A DNA stretch of 64,000 nucleotides, from NCBI RefSeq assembly GCF_964204645.1, contig NC_134026.1, forward strand, positions 8,455,950 through 8,519,949. The letters are read 5' to 3'. The stretch is from Tubulanus polymorphus. Lineage: Eukaryota > Animalia > Nemertea. The position numbers were made by a program, and so were the translations under genes. The notes beneath the pieces were generated by a model. That model was not told the DNA's origin, did not search any database, and was given only the letters and a program-made list of their open reading frames with translations. Below are positions 34,401-52,581 of this stretch, piece by piece; positions within the stretch are counted from its first letter, which is position 1; every line of letters begins with the position of its first letter.

Positions 34401-37293
34401 CACCAGAGTGGATGTCAATATTCTAACAATGCTGATTATTGCTTTATAATTGAGCTTATACGAAAAATTGAAGTTAATAACCAAAATTAAGCTTGCATTT
34501 TCAGTATTTTTTGGAGTCATGCTATTTCAGCAGCCAAGATAATGAAGCCCTTTTAGAATTCAAGCAGCATAGTGACCAGATGATACAAAACCATCTCATA
34601 TCTGACGGCCCAACATTTCCAGACCGTTATGAAAACAGCGCGGATATCAAATGAAAACTGAGCGACAGGCCATATATAGGTAACTCCAAGATCCAACTTA
34701 GCTCAATCAAAAGTCATTTAGTACAATGGATAACAAACATATAGGTTCCAACAAAAGCATCAAACACAAATAGCATAAACATACATAACTGATAGTGTAT
34801 AACAGATCTACAGCGGAATATAATCCCGGAAAGAGTAAGTAGTTTTAGTGGGTGTTCACCTACCGTTTTAGAAATCACTGTTCAAACCGTTATAAAGTTT
34901 TATCGAAGTGGGTGGCTTATAGATATACCGTTTTCGTCCACCATGACAACTGGTCAAGAAATCATATCAATTTAGGTCTTTAATCACGACCGAGGGCCCC
35001 AAAGGAATGTTTATCTGATTTCATTGATAAACCATTGTCCCGCAAACAAATGTTGTCATTTAACAAGTAGAGTAAGAGGGCTAGTTCCATATATGAAAGT
35101 CATATATCGGCAAATTCAATTTGATATATGAAGCGTATTATTACTCAAAGCCCGATCGTAGTGAAAATGACAGAACAAATTTCGTATAAATGAAGAACGA
35201 AAAGAAAAAAATAATCGAAGATTTTCTTTTAAATAATGGAATTTTCGAATAGAAAAAAGGCTTTCTTTACCTGGTCGTTATCTTGATCAAATTCACCGTC
35301 CTAGAGGAAAATGAAAACAGAACAAGTCTTGGTAAAATTGCACACAAAATCGAAACATCCTGAATATACGAAACCGACCAGCCAGCCTTTTTTTTGGTAT
35401 GTTTTTTAAATACGGTGGGTGGGGGGTAAGAGATCGCTTCGAATTGCAAATCTGTTATACCACTTGGCGTCGTCTAGCGCGCGTGCGTACACGCGAAAAA
35501 CTCGACTAAGCCATCTAATTTCGAGCGCGTGAAAATGTACAAATTCTCATGCAAGTTTCTAAAGGGTCGATTATTACCTTTTTCTTCTAAGAGTCTCAGT
35601 GCACTGCCTTTTATAACAGCCGAAGAAATTTGCGATGCTCACCGCGTGCTAGCACAAACAGTTCTAAAGGGCACAGGGCATCCGGGTGGTGGTATAATCT
35701 TTCTCGGTTTAAAGGTATAAACATGTCCCTACTTATTCCTCGGGGAGATGGGGGACTTATTTAGAACAACAAATATTTATCTAAGTGAAAGGGAAAAGGG
35801 CGCTAGCGCGCACACATAGATGCTCTATAGCTAAAGGTGGGTAAAAGTCAATACTCTAATGAACGGTTGGCAGTTTCTATGCATTTACAGACAAGACTAA
35901 GCCTAAGTGTAAACAAAGTCACTAAAATCTATAGGCCTGTAGGAATGAAAATATCTGGACTGAGGCTTATTTGGAGGAGGATGGTATAAGGCGGTGAAGT
36001 GGTGCTCTATATAATATTATGTAACACATTTGGGGTATGTATATATATATAACTGGCAAGGCTGGCAACTAGAATACAAGCAAAAATACATCGTAAATAA
36101 GAGAAAAAAAACATACATCATACAGGTGCTGAAAATGGAATAATCTGGAAAAAAGAAACCCACGCTAAACTCCCGGCTACTCGTAAATTGAAAACGTTCA
36201 TGCGGTCAATTAAATTCGATTTATTTTTATTTCTACGCGAAGATACTCGCGCCGAGATGATAATCATCGCTCGGAATGATGAAAGTGGCCTCGAAATATG
36301 ATTCCCGGGGTATTGATAATCCCCCTAACCCCCCCCCCCCAAGTTAAAACTACTGCAGCGGTTTATAGGTAGCATAACGCGAGCACTAACACTCACATAT
36401 ACACGCACACACACACACGCTCATACGCTAGACTATCTTTTCAGCTAAACATGAATGAATTTATCGCCGACATTGTCACATCTCGACCGTCTTCTACTAT
36501 CATATCAACATTAATATTTCATCATCGCGGATCATTATCGTCAACGCGATCGAGTAAATCTTTTCGGCGACAGTTCCGAGACAACAATTCGCCGTATCGC
36601 GATCGAAGATGCCGTTTTTCGAAGAGAAAACGAAATGGATATCTAAATTCCTAAAATACACGGACATGCCTATACTACTACGTAGCGAGGGGGAAATTTC
36701 TCGTCACGAGCAAATTGCTTTTATTGGCGCTACCCGCAAACAATGAAAATATTTAATAGCCCGAGAAATAGGACAGGTAGTTGTTAGCGGGACTAATGCC
36801 TTCTCTATGCAGTCTGTCGAATGACAATTAATCGGAAAAGCGCCCGAAGGTTTTTCCGACAATTGTGTCTACGTTTTATAGGCCGCACATACATAGGCAT
36901 AGGCCACCGTCGTGAATATCTCTCCACCGGCGTTCGCGGCACCAGAGCGAGTGGACACAACTTCGAATCTAACAATCTGAAGGGCTACGTCCTTATATTC
37001 AAAGTCCGTCGACCTGTAGTTGTTGTAAACGTTACCTTGAGGTGGGATATGAATTCATGGCGCTGTACGTATGCACTCGCGGATAGAGTTCAATGTCTAG
37101 CTATTTCAAAGGCAATAATAAGTAGCCCTAAACCTTACACAGCTATAAAGGCTCTAACTATAAATCGCGACGCATTTAACAACGCCGCACAATCGAATCA
37201 AATTTAAGTGACCCTTACTGTCTTAATAACTATCATGAGAAACATATATACATATGCCAAATTAGTCAGCGCAAACATTTCTAATGACATAAG

Positions 37294-41182: not shown

Positions 41183-41661
41183 CCCATTAGCACTCAAGCG
41201 GCCCGTATCTGCCCCGCCTATTACTCCTCAAGCCGCCCGAATCCACCCAGGTACTTTTTTCGTATGCTGCACAAAAATGGTTATAGCGAGATTCGAACCC
41301 AAAAGTTTTTGATAAACTAGACACCCAAGTCTTTAGAATACCGTACAGAAATCAACATCTTCCTATTTCAAATTCTCGAGTATTTGGGGTATAAACATGA
41401 CTGATCTGAGCGCTCACTTCAAATCTTAGTAAGTTTGAATGAATTCCAGAGGTCTATAAGGAACTGATTTTGGTGGCCCACCTCATCTAATCTTACATCA
41501 AATGATAGCCTTTACTATTTACTATAAAATAACACGAACTTGTAATGCATGAAAATAAACAGCAAATGAGCTATTACGGTATCGCGATGAACTTGGATTT
41601 TCCTTCGAATTTTCTGACGAGTAATTGATACTACGTAGTGAAATTCCTTAGTGCTAATGGG
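41183..41661. mobile_element. Non-autonomous piggyBac-like element (479 bp)
   Basis: TTAA on both sides (41179-41182, 41662-41665) and perfect 12-bp TIRs CCCATTAGCACT / AGTGCTAATGGG. No transposase ORF. Confidence 0.85.
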
Positions 41662-43709
41662 TTAAACTATTTTCTGGGTTTATAGGAAATTGGAACGCTG
41701 TAAGCTACTAAAAAAAAAGATCAGCAACCTCGTAACCTCGACGCCTATACGCAGCTTAGCAAAAAAAAATCAAGTTTGAGCACTTACGTTTTTACAGGAA
41801 TATAATATACATACGTGGTACTTACAAATGTACTAGTACACCATATATAATTATTTGTTTAATGATTAAGTATCTGTCTGTCAGTTTTGTTAGTCGAGTA
41901 TGCTTCCTTATTGTGCTTGAGCCCAGCGGTAAGAGTGTCATTGTATGAACAGGTTGATATAGCCCCCTTCATATATATATATACACTTAAATACATATTT
42001 GTTTGTTTCACGCCGAATGCGGGCGCCCGAATAAAAAGTACCTGTCCATACACCCCAAGTCGGCATTCGTTTTTCGGAAATGCAAAAATTAATAGCCATA
42101 AATCTGAATATACGAAATCATACTCGCAAATTGAGCGTAAAAATAATCAAGATTAGGTTGAAATTCCGATCGAATTAGCTTACTGTACTTGGCTGCTTTG
42201 ATTGATTACAGTCAGTAATTTTCATACGGCTAAGATTCTTATTCATTAGTACGAATAATACTGATTGGACAGTGGCCTAGCGGGACACTATTTAGTTACT
42301 TCACGATGGTGAAAATTCGTAAAGAATTCCGTTAAATTAATCTATCCCGAGCTAAATGAATACTTCGCTTATACATGAACGCAATGCAATGCCTATATGC
42401 TTGTGAGCATACAGCATGCGTTGTGTAAAGAAGCCTTTGTCAATACCTCGTGCGGCAGACTTGTTCGAGAAACGAAATCGAAAAATCTCCCCACGGAATC
42501 TTTGAATTTCGCGAAAAGCTGAAAGCGCTTTCTATCAAATCCTATCTGAACGCGATCCTGATCGGCATATAAAACACGCAGTTAGCAGCAGCAGCAACGA
42601 CGACGACGGCTCCCCGAGCCGAGCGCGCTATAAGCGTACACGACGATGACGACGATGCACACAACATCACGACCAACAAATCAATGAAAATGCGACATCC
42701 ACCGCACAAGCACTAGCGACGTAATTACAACATAAGCCATTCTATAAAATTAAGCGTCTCCATCACCTCGAATAAGTGTACGGCAATAATTCAATGTCAA
42801 GTTACCAGAAACCCATGTACTCGTATACGCGTACTATTATGCAGATTTAATCACAATTATTCGCGATCTCGCGAAAAGAACGCCGTGTAGCGTCGGTCGT
42901 GTACACATATTGCTTGGGACATTCGGGGCATCTTTACGCCCGTAGGCGAAGACGTAGAAAAAAATCGACCAATAATAAATACGTGTGCGGCAAGATTGAA
43001 AAAAAAAGCGATAAGTTCTCTCGTTGCATAAGGGTAGTTTTAATCAGGCGACACAAGCTGATTTGCTAAGGTGTTTAAATACGGCGCAGAAGTGTATTTA
43101 AACACTGGTTAGCATTTAACAACCCTAAGGCTTTCTATCCACGTAAATGCTATCACGGCATTACCTACGGATAATAGAGCTATCTGTGTTCATTAAAATC
43201 GTACTATTGTCCGGAAACGAACCAAGAATTACATGAAATGCGAACCGATGCGACGCACACTAAGCCTATACCGTCCTAAAACTATACTAAAGCCTATATC
43301 GCCCTAAAACAGTCTTCTCTTTTTTGCGCGTGTAGACTTCTTATAGGCTTCTTCATATCGCATTTGCTTCCTCACTAACCATTAGGTCAATTCCGAACAA
43401 CAATTGAATTCCCCTAAACCCAAACCTACCTATAGCGCGTTAACAGACCAGTAACATCTGCTGAACAAATGTTTAGAATTTGATAGATACCACAAACAGG
43501 GATAAGAATAAGTTTACCCAGGCTCCCTGATGCAAATTGGCAATATCTAATCTTCAGCTCCCTAGGCATTCTCTAAATTGGAAACCTCTGCATTTATAAA
43601 TAGCACCGAAACACAGACAACATCATCATCAAACCGTTGAAGTCTGGTTGTCATTTGGCAGATGTACAGGGGTATACATTTGATAGCTCTTGATTCCTAG
43701 GGGAGAATC

Positions 43710-44005
43710 GACCTAGAGCGCAGAGCGGTCTAAGATCCCAGCTGTGGGCTTCGAAAACTGAGAACAAGGAACTGTTCTATATCGGTATAATTCCCACCAG
43801 AAACAGTGTAGCGTGATCAATCTGAAAATCATAGCATGGACGTATAAACTAGATCATAGCAAGTAAAATCAAAATGGTGTAAATTCAACCGATCACACAA
43901 CTATATCTGTACTTCGATTACCGATTTCAAAATCAAACCCCGTTTCATTCCTGCCAGGTGTGGTGGGTTTGTAAGGGACCCCAATCAATCCAAATCAAAT
44001 CAAAC
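43710..44005 (+). repeat. Possible tRNA-derived SINE remnant; its 3' part recurs inverted at about 60381-60420
   Basis: A-box-like gagcggtctaag at the 5' end, shared caaaatcaaaccc..caggtgtggtgggtttg block, and an (AAATC)n-like tail. Confidence 0.4.
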
Positions 44006-46709
44006 AAAATCTACCGATTAGGTAAATAACAGGGTCAATCCCTACATACAGATTCGAAAAAAAATCGAAGATACCATTCACAATTACCAATTCGTTATCT
44101 AATACAACCTACTCAAAATGATGACATTAGTCTTTTATCATTCTACATCCATCACGCATTGGCCATCGTTATCGAAACATTGTGGTCAAAACCGTTCTAA
44201 AAAACACTCGAAAATCCCGGACATAGCCGACCTAAACTACGAATCTCGTCGGAAATTACCAGATTTATTATTCATACGAAATATCATATCCTCGATCTCT
44301 CTCTAAAGAAGTCTTAAATATTTAAACTCCCGAGCTTTTAATATATATATTTTTCGAATCTCGCAGTATATGCCAGCGCCATATCGCTCCACAGAGAGAT
44401 TCGATCTTTTAGGGAATGATTTCGCCGGAGATCTTGAAATCAATGATGAACACTTATCAATCAGTCGAGCGCGCTTATGACTAAGAACGTTTTGAGGCCG
44501 CTTATCATCGATAGTATCTCGTACGTACAATATATCAGTATAACTATCTGATATCTTGAATATAGCTAATAATACCGGCGAAGGCCAACATTTCTCGTTA
44601 ACCTCCCATCGAAACCACTTAAGATCTGTCAAAGTAAAGAAATTCTGATTTACGACGACCAGCTCGACGATTGCTACTCATAAGTACATTTACGAAAACA
44701 GTTTTTATTCTTTCGATTTTCGAAATACTTCAAGTGGCGACATAATATACGCGCACGAGTCGACTCGAGAATTGTTGACTGCCGCGTATGAAGAACAGCA
44801 GGTAAAAAACACAATTGAACCGAATGTTCCGAACACGCACGAAAAATACATATTAATTCTTGAACAACTGCTGCTCTATTGTAGCACATGGTAATACATT
44901 ACTCCCCGGAAGCAAGCGGTTTTCCTCTGTATTACGGGGGCCCTCCCGACAACATACGCAGCTGTTTCTAAGTGGACTTAACAATCTCTCCAGTTATATA
45001 TAAAGATTTGATTCCCGTGAGATGTGAACTACTGACTACTCAGTGTTTGCCGAGGCTGTATTTACAAATGCACTGCTGCACTGGCTGGCTGGCTGCCTGC
45101 TGCCAGATTGTGTCATGTCGACGGAGAGTGATTTTCCTCAACCCGCTACAACAAGAAGAGGAGCTTCAGAGCAGGCGTTTACGATGCTTATATTCGCGCA
45201 CTGAAACAGCGGTTGTTGCAGCATTGTACTCGCGGATATGCTGAATTCAGCAGTCTTTATAGAATAACCGTTCCGCACAGCAACACAGGCCAAAGCTGGT
45301 CTCTGCATCGCGATCTTCGACGTCGCCCGCCATGCAGCTGAATCACGGCGATCTCGTTACCAGAAATGCATGCAAATTTCAACGAACAGAACGACGGAGC
45401 TCTGCGCAGCACGGCAAGAAATTCATTTCCTGTCGTACCCCCCTGGTGCAGTACAAAACCCCCGCGAGATAATGGAACGAATAGGATTATTCGCGTCGAA
45501 TACGTGTATATAGATTTGTAGTATAATATAATATTACCCCCGTACATAACGAGCAGAATCAGAATTGTCGAGCAGTTGGCGTCGAAGGGAAGATTTCGGA
45601 CACTCGTGTGCGCTTGCTCGGTGCAATCCGATGTAAAGCAAATAACCGAAACCCGATCTGCGCTGTAAACAGAAACAGGCCGCCGAGAGCTAAATCGGGA
45701 CATTTCGAAACTTTGCCAGCAATAAAAATCAACGCAACGGCTTGCGTGGCTTACATTTTTCATGTCATGTCGTAGCATTAGTCGTACCACACACCTCTTT
45801 CCCGATTCAGATTTCCGTCCATATAGGTCACTCGTCTATAGGCGGTTGATTTTCCGACTAACGAGATTATAGCCCTTTCAATGGAAATTATCAAAACACG
45901 GAATTAAGGATAATTGTTTGATTGAGAGAGTGCGGCGCATTTACTCCAGGGGGACCTAATTTTCGCAGACTGAAAATCGTATAATAGCGTTGTTGCCGAT
46001 GTCGTCGTATTTTGAGTCGTCTATCAATTGCATAACGAATTTGCAGGTGAAATAATAGCAGCAACGAACATAAAACGCCGACTCACAGATAGTGAATTCA
46101 AAAACTGAGTCAGCGAAAACAACGGCCGCGTCTAATGTTGATCGGTGATTAATACGATGAATCCGAACGAATGGAATCTAGACGAGAGGAACTATCGAAA
46201 AAAGATGATACGCTTAGAGAGAATGGTACAAATCGACAGAATCTATTACAGAGATTGACCCGCGTTTGAAATAAATACCGATAGGTGCAGTGCATTTGGG
46301 AATGAAATCATACAAATCGGCAGAATCAGAATTTACGATGCTACTGAACCTGGATCCGTAGGAATCGAATAAGCACTGCCGTTTTAAAGATTACTTTTCT
46401 CGAGAACGAATACGTTTTTGTTCGCTTGCATCATCGCAAGCGACAACGGATATACACGAATCTAGCTGAACAGATACTGCTGAACAGAATCTGCGTGAAA
46501 ACCAATTTATTTATTCTTAGCTCCTAGAGAGAGAGAGAGAGAGGAGAGAGTGGTGGCGGACGGGAGAGGAGAGACAGGCTGAATGACTCACTCATTGATT
46601 CAGTCAGATACAAAGACAAGGTGACAAATGGGCATGTGACCCAATTACTTGGCGAGAGAAATGATTTATCCCGAAGAATGTTAACTGCCTGCTCTCCTTA
46701 CGTACCCCC

Positions 46710-46815
46710 CTAATCATATTCTCTACAACTGCCGCAGGCCGACCCCGAGTTCCTACTTCGAATCTACTATTAAGTCTATATGAAAGACTACTACGATTTC
46801 TACTAAATTCTACTA
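46710..46815 (-). promoter_or_regulatory. Intronic cluster of Musashi-type UAG elements
   Basis: 10 UAG in 46753-46815, including four UAGUAG doublets, and 12 UAG in 46710-46815, all on the sense strand of the gene. Confidence 0.65.
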
Positions 46816-46820
46816 GTTAC

Positions 46821-46873
46821 CTTGTAATTAATCTATGTATATGATATGTTTTTTTTTTTTTTGGTTTCTACTT
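46821..46873 (-). other. Candidate stop-containing (poison) cassette exon in Musashi intron 5
   Basis: Acceptor ttttctacaattttgTAG, exon begins AAG TAG (stop in frame with exon 5), donor AAG|GTAACT. It is followed immediately by a dense UAG cluster. Confidence 0.45.
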
Positions 46874-47084
46874 CTACAAAATTGTAGAAAATTCTGACCT
46901 ACGCATTTGCCGACGTGTCCTTTAGGCTTTTATAATCCGATTTTTAATATAATCCTCAATAATACGCATTGTAATCCGAGTTTTAAATAATCGTATGTAA
47001 TCCCGCGCGAGATAACGCTGAAAAAATAGAGAGTAGTTTGCGTTTTCTTTTTCTGTTATCGTTCTCGTCGTTTAGATACGTTAC

Positions 47085-48115: not shown

Positions 48116-48206
48116 CTTCTTGGCATCTAATATATGTGCATTATTTCCACAATTTAATACTTTATCTACACATGACGGGTCGCAAAAGGTTACAAAGCCA
48201 AAGCCC
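48116..48206 (-). CDS. msi: Musashi coding exon 4 (GFGFVTFCDPSCVDKVLNCGNNAHILDAKK; RRM1 RNP1)
   Basis: Acceptor tttcag, donor AAG|GTACGA, 91 nt. Contains the RNP1 RGFGFVTF, which is also visible in ORF 48020..48229. Confidence 0.97.
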
Positions 48207-50546: not shown

Positions 50547-50660
50547 CTAACCCTAACCCTAATCCTATTCCTCTCGACCCTCTAAACCCTAACACTCTGA
50601 CGTCTCTAACCCTAACCTCTCATCCGCTAGGCCTAACCATGTCCTCTAGATCCTTAACCC
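50547..50660. repeat. Degenerate (CCCTAA)n telomere-like tract
   Basis: ctaaccctaaccctaatcc...aaaccctaac...ctaaccctaacc. Confidence 0.7.
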
Positions 50661-51374: not shown

Positions 51375-51788
51375 CGCGAGAAATCCCACAATAATTAAGC
51401 CAAAAATGCAAAGTTCTTGAATAGAAAAAATGTATATATATATATTTGAGCGACGTTTCGGCTAAAAACTATTAGCCATCATCAGGCATAATGATTCAGA
51501 ATCGATTGACAAGATATGAATGTAACAAAATGAACTAACTGAGTGGTTAAAAGTTGAATACAGATTAAATTAATTAAAAACAAAGACCAGAAAAACAATA
51601 GTAAAGTACAGAGTAAGTAATTGACAAACTAGGGGTAATATTACAAGATGAAGTAATTTAAACACAAAGCCCTAAGCTTAAGTGATTAAAACGGAGGCAA
51701 ACTAAGGGGTAATCAAACAAAAAAAGGGCAGATATTTCTATTCAAGAACTTTGCATTTTCTGGCTTAATTATTGTGGGATTTCTCGCG
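51375..51788 (-). mobile_element. Penelope-like element remnant bounded by an inverted duplication
   Basis: 53/54-nt near-perfect inverted repeat (51375-51427 vs 51735-51788, one indel) enclosing the hammerhead motif. An inverted terminal duplication plus a hammerhead is typical of PLE insertions. Confidence 0.65.
51447..51498 (-). ncRNA. Minimal type I hammerhead ribozyme motif (Penelope-like element type)
   Basis: Minus strand reads gc-CTGATGA-T-GGCTAA(TAGTTT)TTAGCC-GAAA-C-GTC-gc: intact core, perfect 6-bp stem II, palindromic ACGT helix III and a GUC cleavage triplet. Stem I is weak. Confidence 0.75.
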
Positions 51789-52581
51789 TTTATTCATCAT
51801 ACACGGATATTGTAAGGATGTTACCATTTGCTTAATATAAAAAAATAATTAAGACATCATATGTTTTAGGGCTCCCAAAACGATGTTACCCTTTTTTTTA
51901 TTTTAGACAAAAATGGCGACACCCTTCTTTTCAAGTTGTTCACTCTATGCGGAGTTCACAAGGCAAAAAAGTTCCGAAGAACTCCTCGCTTGCGTTAATA
52001 ATACGTTCTTTTGGTGCAAAGCACCGTAATTGCCGGCGTGTTCCAGAAGACCAAAACATCTCATCCGCGCGATACACTTTCATGCTTGATATAGCAACCC
52101 GTTCCCGACCCATTCAGCTTGGCTGATCATTTTGAAACTAATAAATTCGCGAGCGCCCTGATAGCTACCCGAATCCGAAACGCGAAACGGAAGCTCCGCC
52201 TGTCCCCGACGCGCGGCCTAGGCGTACATACGTATTATTGCACCTTGATCAATTTTTCTCGCTTCACAGTCAAAGGTGTTTGAAATAAAAGAGCCTCGAT
52301 CGCGCTCTTGTCGAAGGATGAGAAACATTCCGAACAGCATGCGCGGGCGCTAATTAATACACTAATTAGCCGACTTGAAGCAGAAAACACACACACACAC
52401 ACAAAGACAACCGTTCCCTATCGCGCTGGAATCTGCGAGCATGGTTCGTGAACGCGCATAAAAATTGCGTCAACAAAACAACGGCGAAGAATATGAGAGC
52501 GGATGGGGCGTTTAAAACTTTTCCTTTCGCATCGACGCATCGATACGCTGAAAAACTTCTTTACGTCGAAATTGCTCTTTT

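Follow-up and report, generated by a model that had tools for sequence, protein, structure and literature searches.

A UAG array beside a putative unannotated 5′ splice site in the Musashi gene of Tubulanus polymorphus (Nemertea): a candidate element for Musashi-promoted unproductive splicing

Organization of the Musashi locus

The stretch of DNA analysed here, 64 kb of the nemertean Tubulanus polymorphus (the window), carries on its minus strand what is, judged from its translation, the Musashi gene. Seven coding exons translate into the first 146 residues of RefSeq XP_074642054.1 (T. polymorphus). The exons after exon 6 lie outside the 64-kb window. The coding exons are:

49219–49161, minus strand: Musashi coding exon 1, by translation
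48973–48933, minus strand: Musashi coding exon 2, by translation
48700–48619, minus strand: Musashi coding exon 3, by translation
48206–48116, minus strand: Musashi coding exon 4, by translation
47126–47085, minus strand: Musashi exon 5, end of RRM1, by translation; matches RefSeq protein P0002
35300–35271, minus strand: 30-nt in-frame linker exon, from RefSeq isoforms and the X3 contig
23558–23466, minus strand: Musashi exon 6, start of RRM2, by translation

The initial annotation had treated 47084–23559 as a single intron 5. This was wrong, as the 30-nt in-frame exon sits inside it. The ten residues of this exon are present in all five RefSeq isoforms of T. polymorphus. A 522-nt contig (X3; depth 46, guessed to be RNA) has 30 extra letters between exons 5 and 6, after allowing for a 3-letter difference at the end of exon 4, and its loose end matches 35300–35271. 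The contig carries the same species label and is diverged, differing at 15 of 86 letters (exon 3) and at 12 of 82 (exon 6); its joints at 48205/48618 and 48703/49151 are further evidence for exons 1–4. Because the 30-nt exon splits the former intron 5, the UAG element described below sits in an 11.8-kb intron with its downstream acceptor at 35300, and the predicted junction 46821 to 23558 is corrected to 46821 to 35300.

The 30-nt exon is acidic and belongs to the RRM1–RRM2 linker. No insert of this kind was present in any of the 14 Lineus isoforms. Other inserts occur at the same RRM1–RRM2 junction in two related proteins (P0009, P0010) and in many vertebrate MSI2 isoforms.

The matches of the tandem-RRM protein are Musashi wherever they are named, among at least 120 matches listed, the rest being unnamed or hypothetical. 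In the tree the Tubulanus protein groups with Lineus and two related proteins (support 100/98), within a weakly supported Musashi group (82/82). Contact residues were read by eye from an alignment with rodent MSI2, with residue numbering after the accessible part of PMC3326303. W29 and the RRM1 contacts K21, F23, R61, F63, F65, K88, D91 and K93 are retained, as are the RRM2 contacts K110, F112, R150, F152, F154 and K182, and K177 of RRM2 is replaced by Arg. F96 is valine in Tubulanus, Lineus and the two related proteins (P0002, P0007, P0009, P0010; nemertean-type), and position 96 is also not Phe in insect msi-type proteins. In mouse Msi1 this phenylalanine sandwiches the A of UAG and is termed Musashi-specific in the accessible text of PMC3326303. 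By sequence comparison, the Tubulanus protein is a Musashi orthologue with a variant RRM1. Since the UAG-contacting residues are kept except F96 (Val) and RRM2 K177 (Arg), UAG binding by this protein is likely.

A candidate 5′ splice site followed by a UAG array

Two adjoining features lie in the intron after exon 5:

46823–46815, minus strand: candidate unannotated 5′ splice site AAG/GTAACT, last exon base 46821, 8 of 9 consensus positions
46815–46753, minus strand: UAG array with 10 UAG, four UAGUAG doublets and five GUAG, by counting

The donor is present as had been predicted. Donors were scored as matches to a simple 9-position consensus rather than with a trained model. On this scale donor 46821 (8/9) outscores five of the seven real donors in the window, and it shares 8 nt with the exon 5 donor. 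It is among only six unannotated sites in 49 kb that reach 8/9, and the other five have 0–2 TAG in the next 80 nt. When the comparison was widened to 71 decoy donors (at least 7/9), the 80 nt that follow them held at most 4 TAG, compared to 10 at 46821. A recursive splice site (AG/GT) at 46821 was rejected by inspection, as there is no pyrimidine tract and the site is only 264 nt into the 11.8-kb intron.

The array begins at donor position +6 and runs to +68. Counting bore out the earlier figure of 10 UAG in 63 nt with four doublets, and the chance expectation of about one becomes ∼0.8 from the window average. In the proposed sliding-window count on both strands, the array proved to be the maximum of the 64-kb window, the next best stretches having 7 UAG on the sense strand and 5 on the antisense strand. 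Markov simulations of the 49-kb transcribed part (order 2 and order 5, 150 runs each) gave maxima of 4–7 TAG compared to the 10 observed, and none of the 300 runs exceeded 7. Four matches to (G/A)U1-3AGU fall within the array. A further four UAGs are found upstream of the donor, at 46901, 46876, 46870 and 46835; UAGs thus flank donor 46821 on both sides, with 14 in 150 nt.

The array stretch is single-copy, with a depth of ∼30 in sequencing run X1 against thousands in repeats, and it is identical to a 7.5-kb contig of the same run, which may be the source sample. Origin of the array from a transposon or repeat was rejected on single-copy depth together with self-BLAST. TRF found no tandem repeat at the array. 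A known ncRNA was likewise rejected, with no Rfam match for the region at E up to 1, and the global RNA fold of the region is not unusual (z −0.10).

The chance of finding such a donor in this place was estimated from 5000 trinucleotide-preserving shuffles of a 161-nt region, a design chosen to allow for its AG/GTA-rich composition. An 8/9 donor arose in 2.6% of the shuffles, a 7/9 donor in 26%, and an 8/9 donor followed by at least 8 TAG in 0.46%; the thresholds were set after the site had been seen, and the percentages are optimistic. Both the array and its placement at a strong donor are real, and chance is an improbable explanation for them.

A neutral origin was considered in the light of these counts, namely that the array is a decayed short local duplication (a unit of ∼10–12 nt with TAGTAG) lying by accident beside a donor-like 9-mer. 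The first three doublets are 10–12 nt apart with similar flanks, the local composition favours donor-like words, as the shuffles indicate, and other clusters with 7 TAG per 63 nt occur at 50608, where the cluster overlaps a telomere-like repeat, and at 43306. Against this origin stand the TRF result, the simulations, and the independent clustering of the TAG motif in this gene's 5′UTR, which is restricted to the sense strand. We consider it unlikely.

Exon models upstream of the donor

The donor could be joined to several upstream boundaries:

46873–46821, minus strand: candidate poison exon of 53, 50 or 47 nt, with acceptors at 46873, 46870 and 46867, predicted from sequence
46890–46871, minus strand: 8-bp hairpin over the pyrimidine tract and the first two AGs, predicted by folding
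47017–46821, minus strand: alternative 197-nt exon with acceptor 47017, predicted; stop at 46924
47084–46821, minus strand: alternative 264-nt extension of exon 5 to the distal donor, predicted; stop at 46985

The three tandem AGs described in the initial annotation would give exons beginning at 46873, 46870 or 46867, the first of them separated from the exon 5 donor (47085) by 211 nt, and the predicted exon length of 47–53 nt resolves into the three forms listed. Translation agreed with the claim that all three acceptors truncate the protein after RRM1, and including the 30-nt exon leaves the stop of the frameshift form where exon 6 begins. The description of the acceptor as pyrimidine-rich was upheld in part. 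A tract is present, but it is only moderately rich, with 11 of 16 pyrimidines; the last three real acceptors have 13–15 of 16 and the first three 8–9 of 16. Two further AGs lie within 40 nt upstream of the candidate acceptor, and an acceptor as good as this one was found for 13 of the 71 decoy donors. The hairpin pairs the acceptor pyrimidines with the AG-bearing arm (z −3.07 on a stretch picked after the hairpin had been seen). The candidate acceptor AGs are themselves GUAG/UAG-type motifs, and a run of 14 A residues (46862–46849) lies inside the candidate exon. The 47–53-nt exon is less secure than the array and the donor, since its weak part, the acceptor, is of middling quality, falls within the 8-bp hairpin and consists of UAGs.

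Two other boundaries would fit as well as the 47–53-nt exon. Acceptor 47017 has 13 of 16 pyrimidines, better than the candidate's, and the intron preceding it would be 67 nt. The 197-nt exon and the 264-nt extension of exon 5 would each bring in a stop within ∼35 codons. In six of the seven models translated, the reading frame ends after RRM1 and ahead of further introns; in the 12-nt model it remains open.

This last model is a 12-nt in-frame microexon (46832–46821; four residues), activated by Musashi and lengthening the linker between the RRMs. Besides its open reading frame, it is favoured by the existence of Musashi-activated microexons, one of them in mouse Msi2, and by the linker insertions that many Musashi proteins take at the same junction. 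Its acceptor, however, is poor and A-rich (7 of 16 pyrimidines), and the microexon is absent from all five RefSeq isoforms and from the X3 contig. We regard it as very improbable. If donor 46821 is used at all, our guess would give the 47–53-nt exon a little under an even chance of being the true form, the 197-nt exon and the extended exon 5 equal and clearly smaller chances, and the in-frame microexon a very small one.

hnRNP A1-type proteins bind UAG and silence nearby donors. The array may be a real protein-binding element with a job other than activating a poison exon. One possibility is an hnRNP A/B- or DAZAP-type silencer keeping a cryptic donor off; another is a Musashi site that acts on intron retention or on a terminal exon within the intron (acceptor 46523, AATAAA 46515). 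A function of this kind would agree with the presence of UAGs on both sides of the donor and in the putative acceptors themselves, with the lack of any transcript using donor 46821 among the RefSeq isoforms and the X3 contig, and with the very strong CT-repeat acceptor (16 of 16 pyrimidines) at 46523 and the AATAAA at 46515, 300 nt past the array. A silenced donor would, however, be expected to decay, yet 46821 is near consensus; the motifs fit the GUAG/UAG preference of Musashi (five GUAG), and the gene is Musashi itself. The tract at 46523 is moreover a simple AG/CT repeat of a kind that recurs in the window. On balance a different function of the bound array appears rather unlikely. The stretch concerned is 46550–46433 on the minus strand, where the acceptor-like CT repeat at 46523 is followed by the AATAAA at 46515.

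Transcript and comparative evidence

The candidate element is absent from all five RefSeq isoforms of T. polymorphus. It is also absent from the single X3 contig of the diverged relative, in which exon 5 passes to the 30-nt exon without room for it; as contigs drop rare forms, this is weak evidence. X3 cover is missing over the intron, which counts neither way. No RRM1-only protein of Tubulanus was present among the 120 listed of 214 short matches. Absence from RefSeq, from the X3 contig and from the short proteins is only weakly negative, since an NMD target is expected to be missing from all of them.

A comparable intron 5 was not found in the few genomic Musashi contigs of a metagenome scan, which consisted mostly of transcripts, and a scan of prokaryote genomes gave no related loci. 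A conserved RRM1-only isoform was considered and rejected: 46 of 101 short Musashi-like matches end after exon 5, and their tails are unrelated except in two frogs. The two frogs are distant from each other and carry near-identical 29-residue tails after Msi2 exon 5 (P0215, P0216), which suggests a conserved sequence or extended exon at the start of the vertebrate intron 5.

Musashi-promoted unproductive splicing as a possible feedback

The initial annotation proposed that Musashi switches on its own poison exon. In the form that we favour, stated tentatively, Musashi promotes unproductive splicing through donor 46821 as negative feedback. When abundant in the nucleus, Musashi would bind the UAG array; the bound protein would promote the use of donor 46821, and this use would yield a message with an early stop after RRM1. 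Such a message is predicted, from general knowledge, to be destroyed by NMD. Donor use, Musashi binding and NMD are steps that we infer, and the direction of the effect is taken by analogy from mouse retina. The proposal gains from the non-random pairing of donor and array and from the match to the exon layout of mouse retina. Counting against it are the other upstream boundaries that fit equally, the absence of the element from annotated and assembled transcripts, and the absence of F96.

According to the accessible parts of PMC4991804 and PMC9509328, Musashi favours the inclusion of exons in mouse photoreceptors by binding clustered UAGs in the proximal part of the downstream intron, and in mouse retina at least three UAGs clustered downstream of an exon mark Musashi-activated exons. 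The Tubulanus element has 10 UAG in this position. Clustered UAGs likewise lie just downstream of the donor in the vertebrate photoreceptor exons described in those parts (Ttc8 exon 2A; PMC4991804, PMC9509328). The photoreceptor exons are demonstrated there by RNA-seq, eCLIP and minigenes, whereas the Tubulanus element is known from sequence alone. It also differs in belonging to an invertebrate, in lying in the Musashi gene and in its predicted result, a stop.

A case of Musashi acting on the splicing of its own gene is likewise found in mouse. Inclusion of a 24-nt Msi2 exon is Musashi-promoted, at ∼0.85 against 0.38 in the knockout, in the accessible part of PMC9509328 (Supplementary Data 12). 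This exon is in-frame by length and by coordinates far 3′ of intron 5, so that it is not a poison exon. A second Msi2 row in the same supplement (41 nt, second exon; PMC9509328) is taken to be the deleted exon of the knockout.

Poison-exon feedback is common among RNA-binding proteins. The element would work like known AS-NMD autoregulation, as a candidate member of that class. Autoregulation of SR and hnRNP proteins by AS-NMD (RUST) is reviewed in PMC6884704; in the text accessible to us, these genes likewise have the motif of their own protein beside an alternative splice event that introduces an early stop codon. For them, inclusion, NMD sensitivity and conservation have been demonstrated, in contrast to the Tubulanus case, which is a prediction. 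The only Musashi autoregulation cited in the accessible part of that review is a positive 3′UTR feedback in Xenopus. Musashi1 binds its own RNA there, as is proposed for Tubulanus, but the Xenopus feedback is positive, cytoplasmic and exerted via polyadenylation, while the feedback proposed here would be negative and nuclear (PMC6884704).

A 2026 study of mouse photoreceptors describes robust feedback through which a single allele restores Musashi levels, and its accessible part names no mechanism (PMC13175383). In the same part, the splicing role of Musashi appears confined to photoreceptors (PMC13175383), which counts against the proposed switch. Neither a Musashi poison exon nor splicing control by an invertebrate Musashi turned up in full-text literature searches. 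The type of circuit is not new. If the proposed circuit is true, the places to look would be the intron after RRM1 and the 5′UTR, and the splicing role of Musashi would date from the bilaterian ancestor.

A second UAG array in the 5′ leader and other elements

Two further motif clusters were counted in the same gene:

49350–49220, minus strand: second UAG array, 12 UAG in 131 nt, ahead of the start codon
47003–46933, minus strand: four GGATTA copies, spaced out within 70 nt, shortly before the candidate exon

At least 49308–49220 of the second array looks like 5′UTR, since it is inside the X3 contig. This contig matches 49308–49151 except for 12 differing letters and 7 gaps, part of which are listed individually. 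Within the first 2.6 kb of the transcript there are 62 TAG, compared to 33 on the opposite strand; of the 17 sense TAGTAG in the transcribed part, 11 fall here, whereas none of the 8 on the opposite strand do. Most of this excess is due to the two arrays; between them the counts are 40 and 31. It is conceivable, though distinctly unlikely in our judgement, that spiralian Musashi limits itself at two levels, by a UAG-gated unproductive splice in intron 5 and by the UAG array of the 5′UTR. In that case the role of Musashi in splicing would be older than vertebrate photoreceptors, and such a circuit might be the mechanism behind the dosage-compensating feedback of mouse photoreceptors.

Conservation of a UAG-rich 5′UTR across all Musashi genes was not supported. 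In a comparison of 14 Musashi with 37 other RRM transcripts of invertebrates, the UAG density was the same (Mann–Whitney p 0.80). For this comparison 51 of 80 loci were analysed, loci longer than 5 kb, with less than 50 nt upstream or with no RNP1 in the longest ORF being dropped. With L003, a Musashi transcript that this comparison counts among the others, moved to Musashi, Poisson p < 0.05 was obtained in 4 of 15 Musashi and 3 of 36 other transcripts. The two transcripts that group with annelid Musashi (L002, L003) both have UAG-rich 5′UTRs, with 8 UAG in 96 nt and 8 in 185 nt, which serves as a lead only. The 5′UTRs of transcripts L008 and L010 are UAG-rich too.

Three more TAGTAG (48328–48022, minus strand) flank the 91-nt exon 4, the skipping of which would shift the frame. 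The GGATTA and TAGTAG clusters are the only such hexamer clusters in the window outside apparent simple or tandem repeats. The reverse complement of GGATTA is the K50 homeodomain (Otx/Crx) site; alternatively, the copies could be an RNA element. High-copy repeats, with depths of hundreds to tens of thousands in run X1, occur at ∼41200–41700, 43890–44020 and 51400–51800. A degenerate telomere-like (TTAGGG) stretch lies at 50635–50545, ∼1.3 kb before the start codon, and explains one of the remaining TAG clusters of the window.
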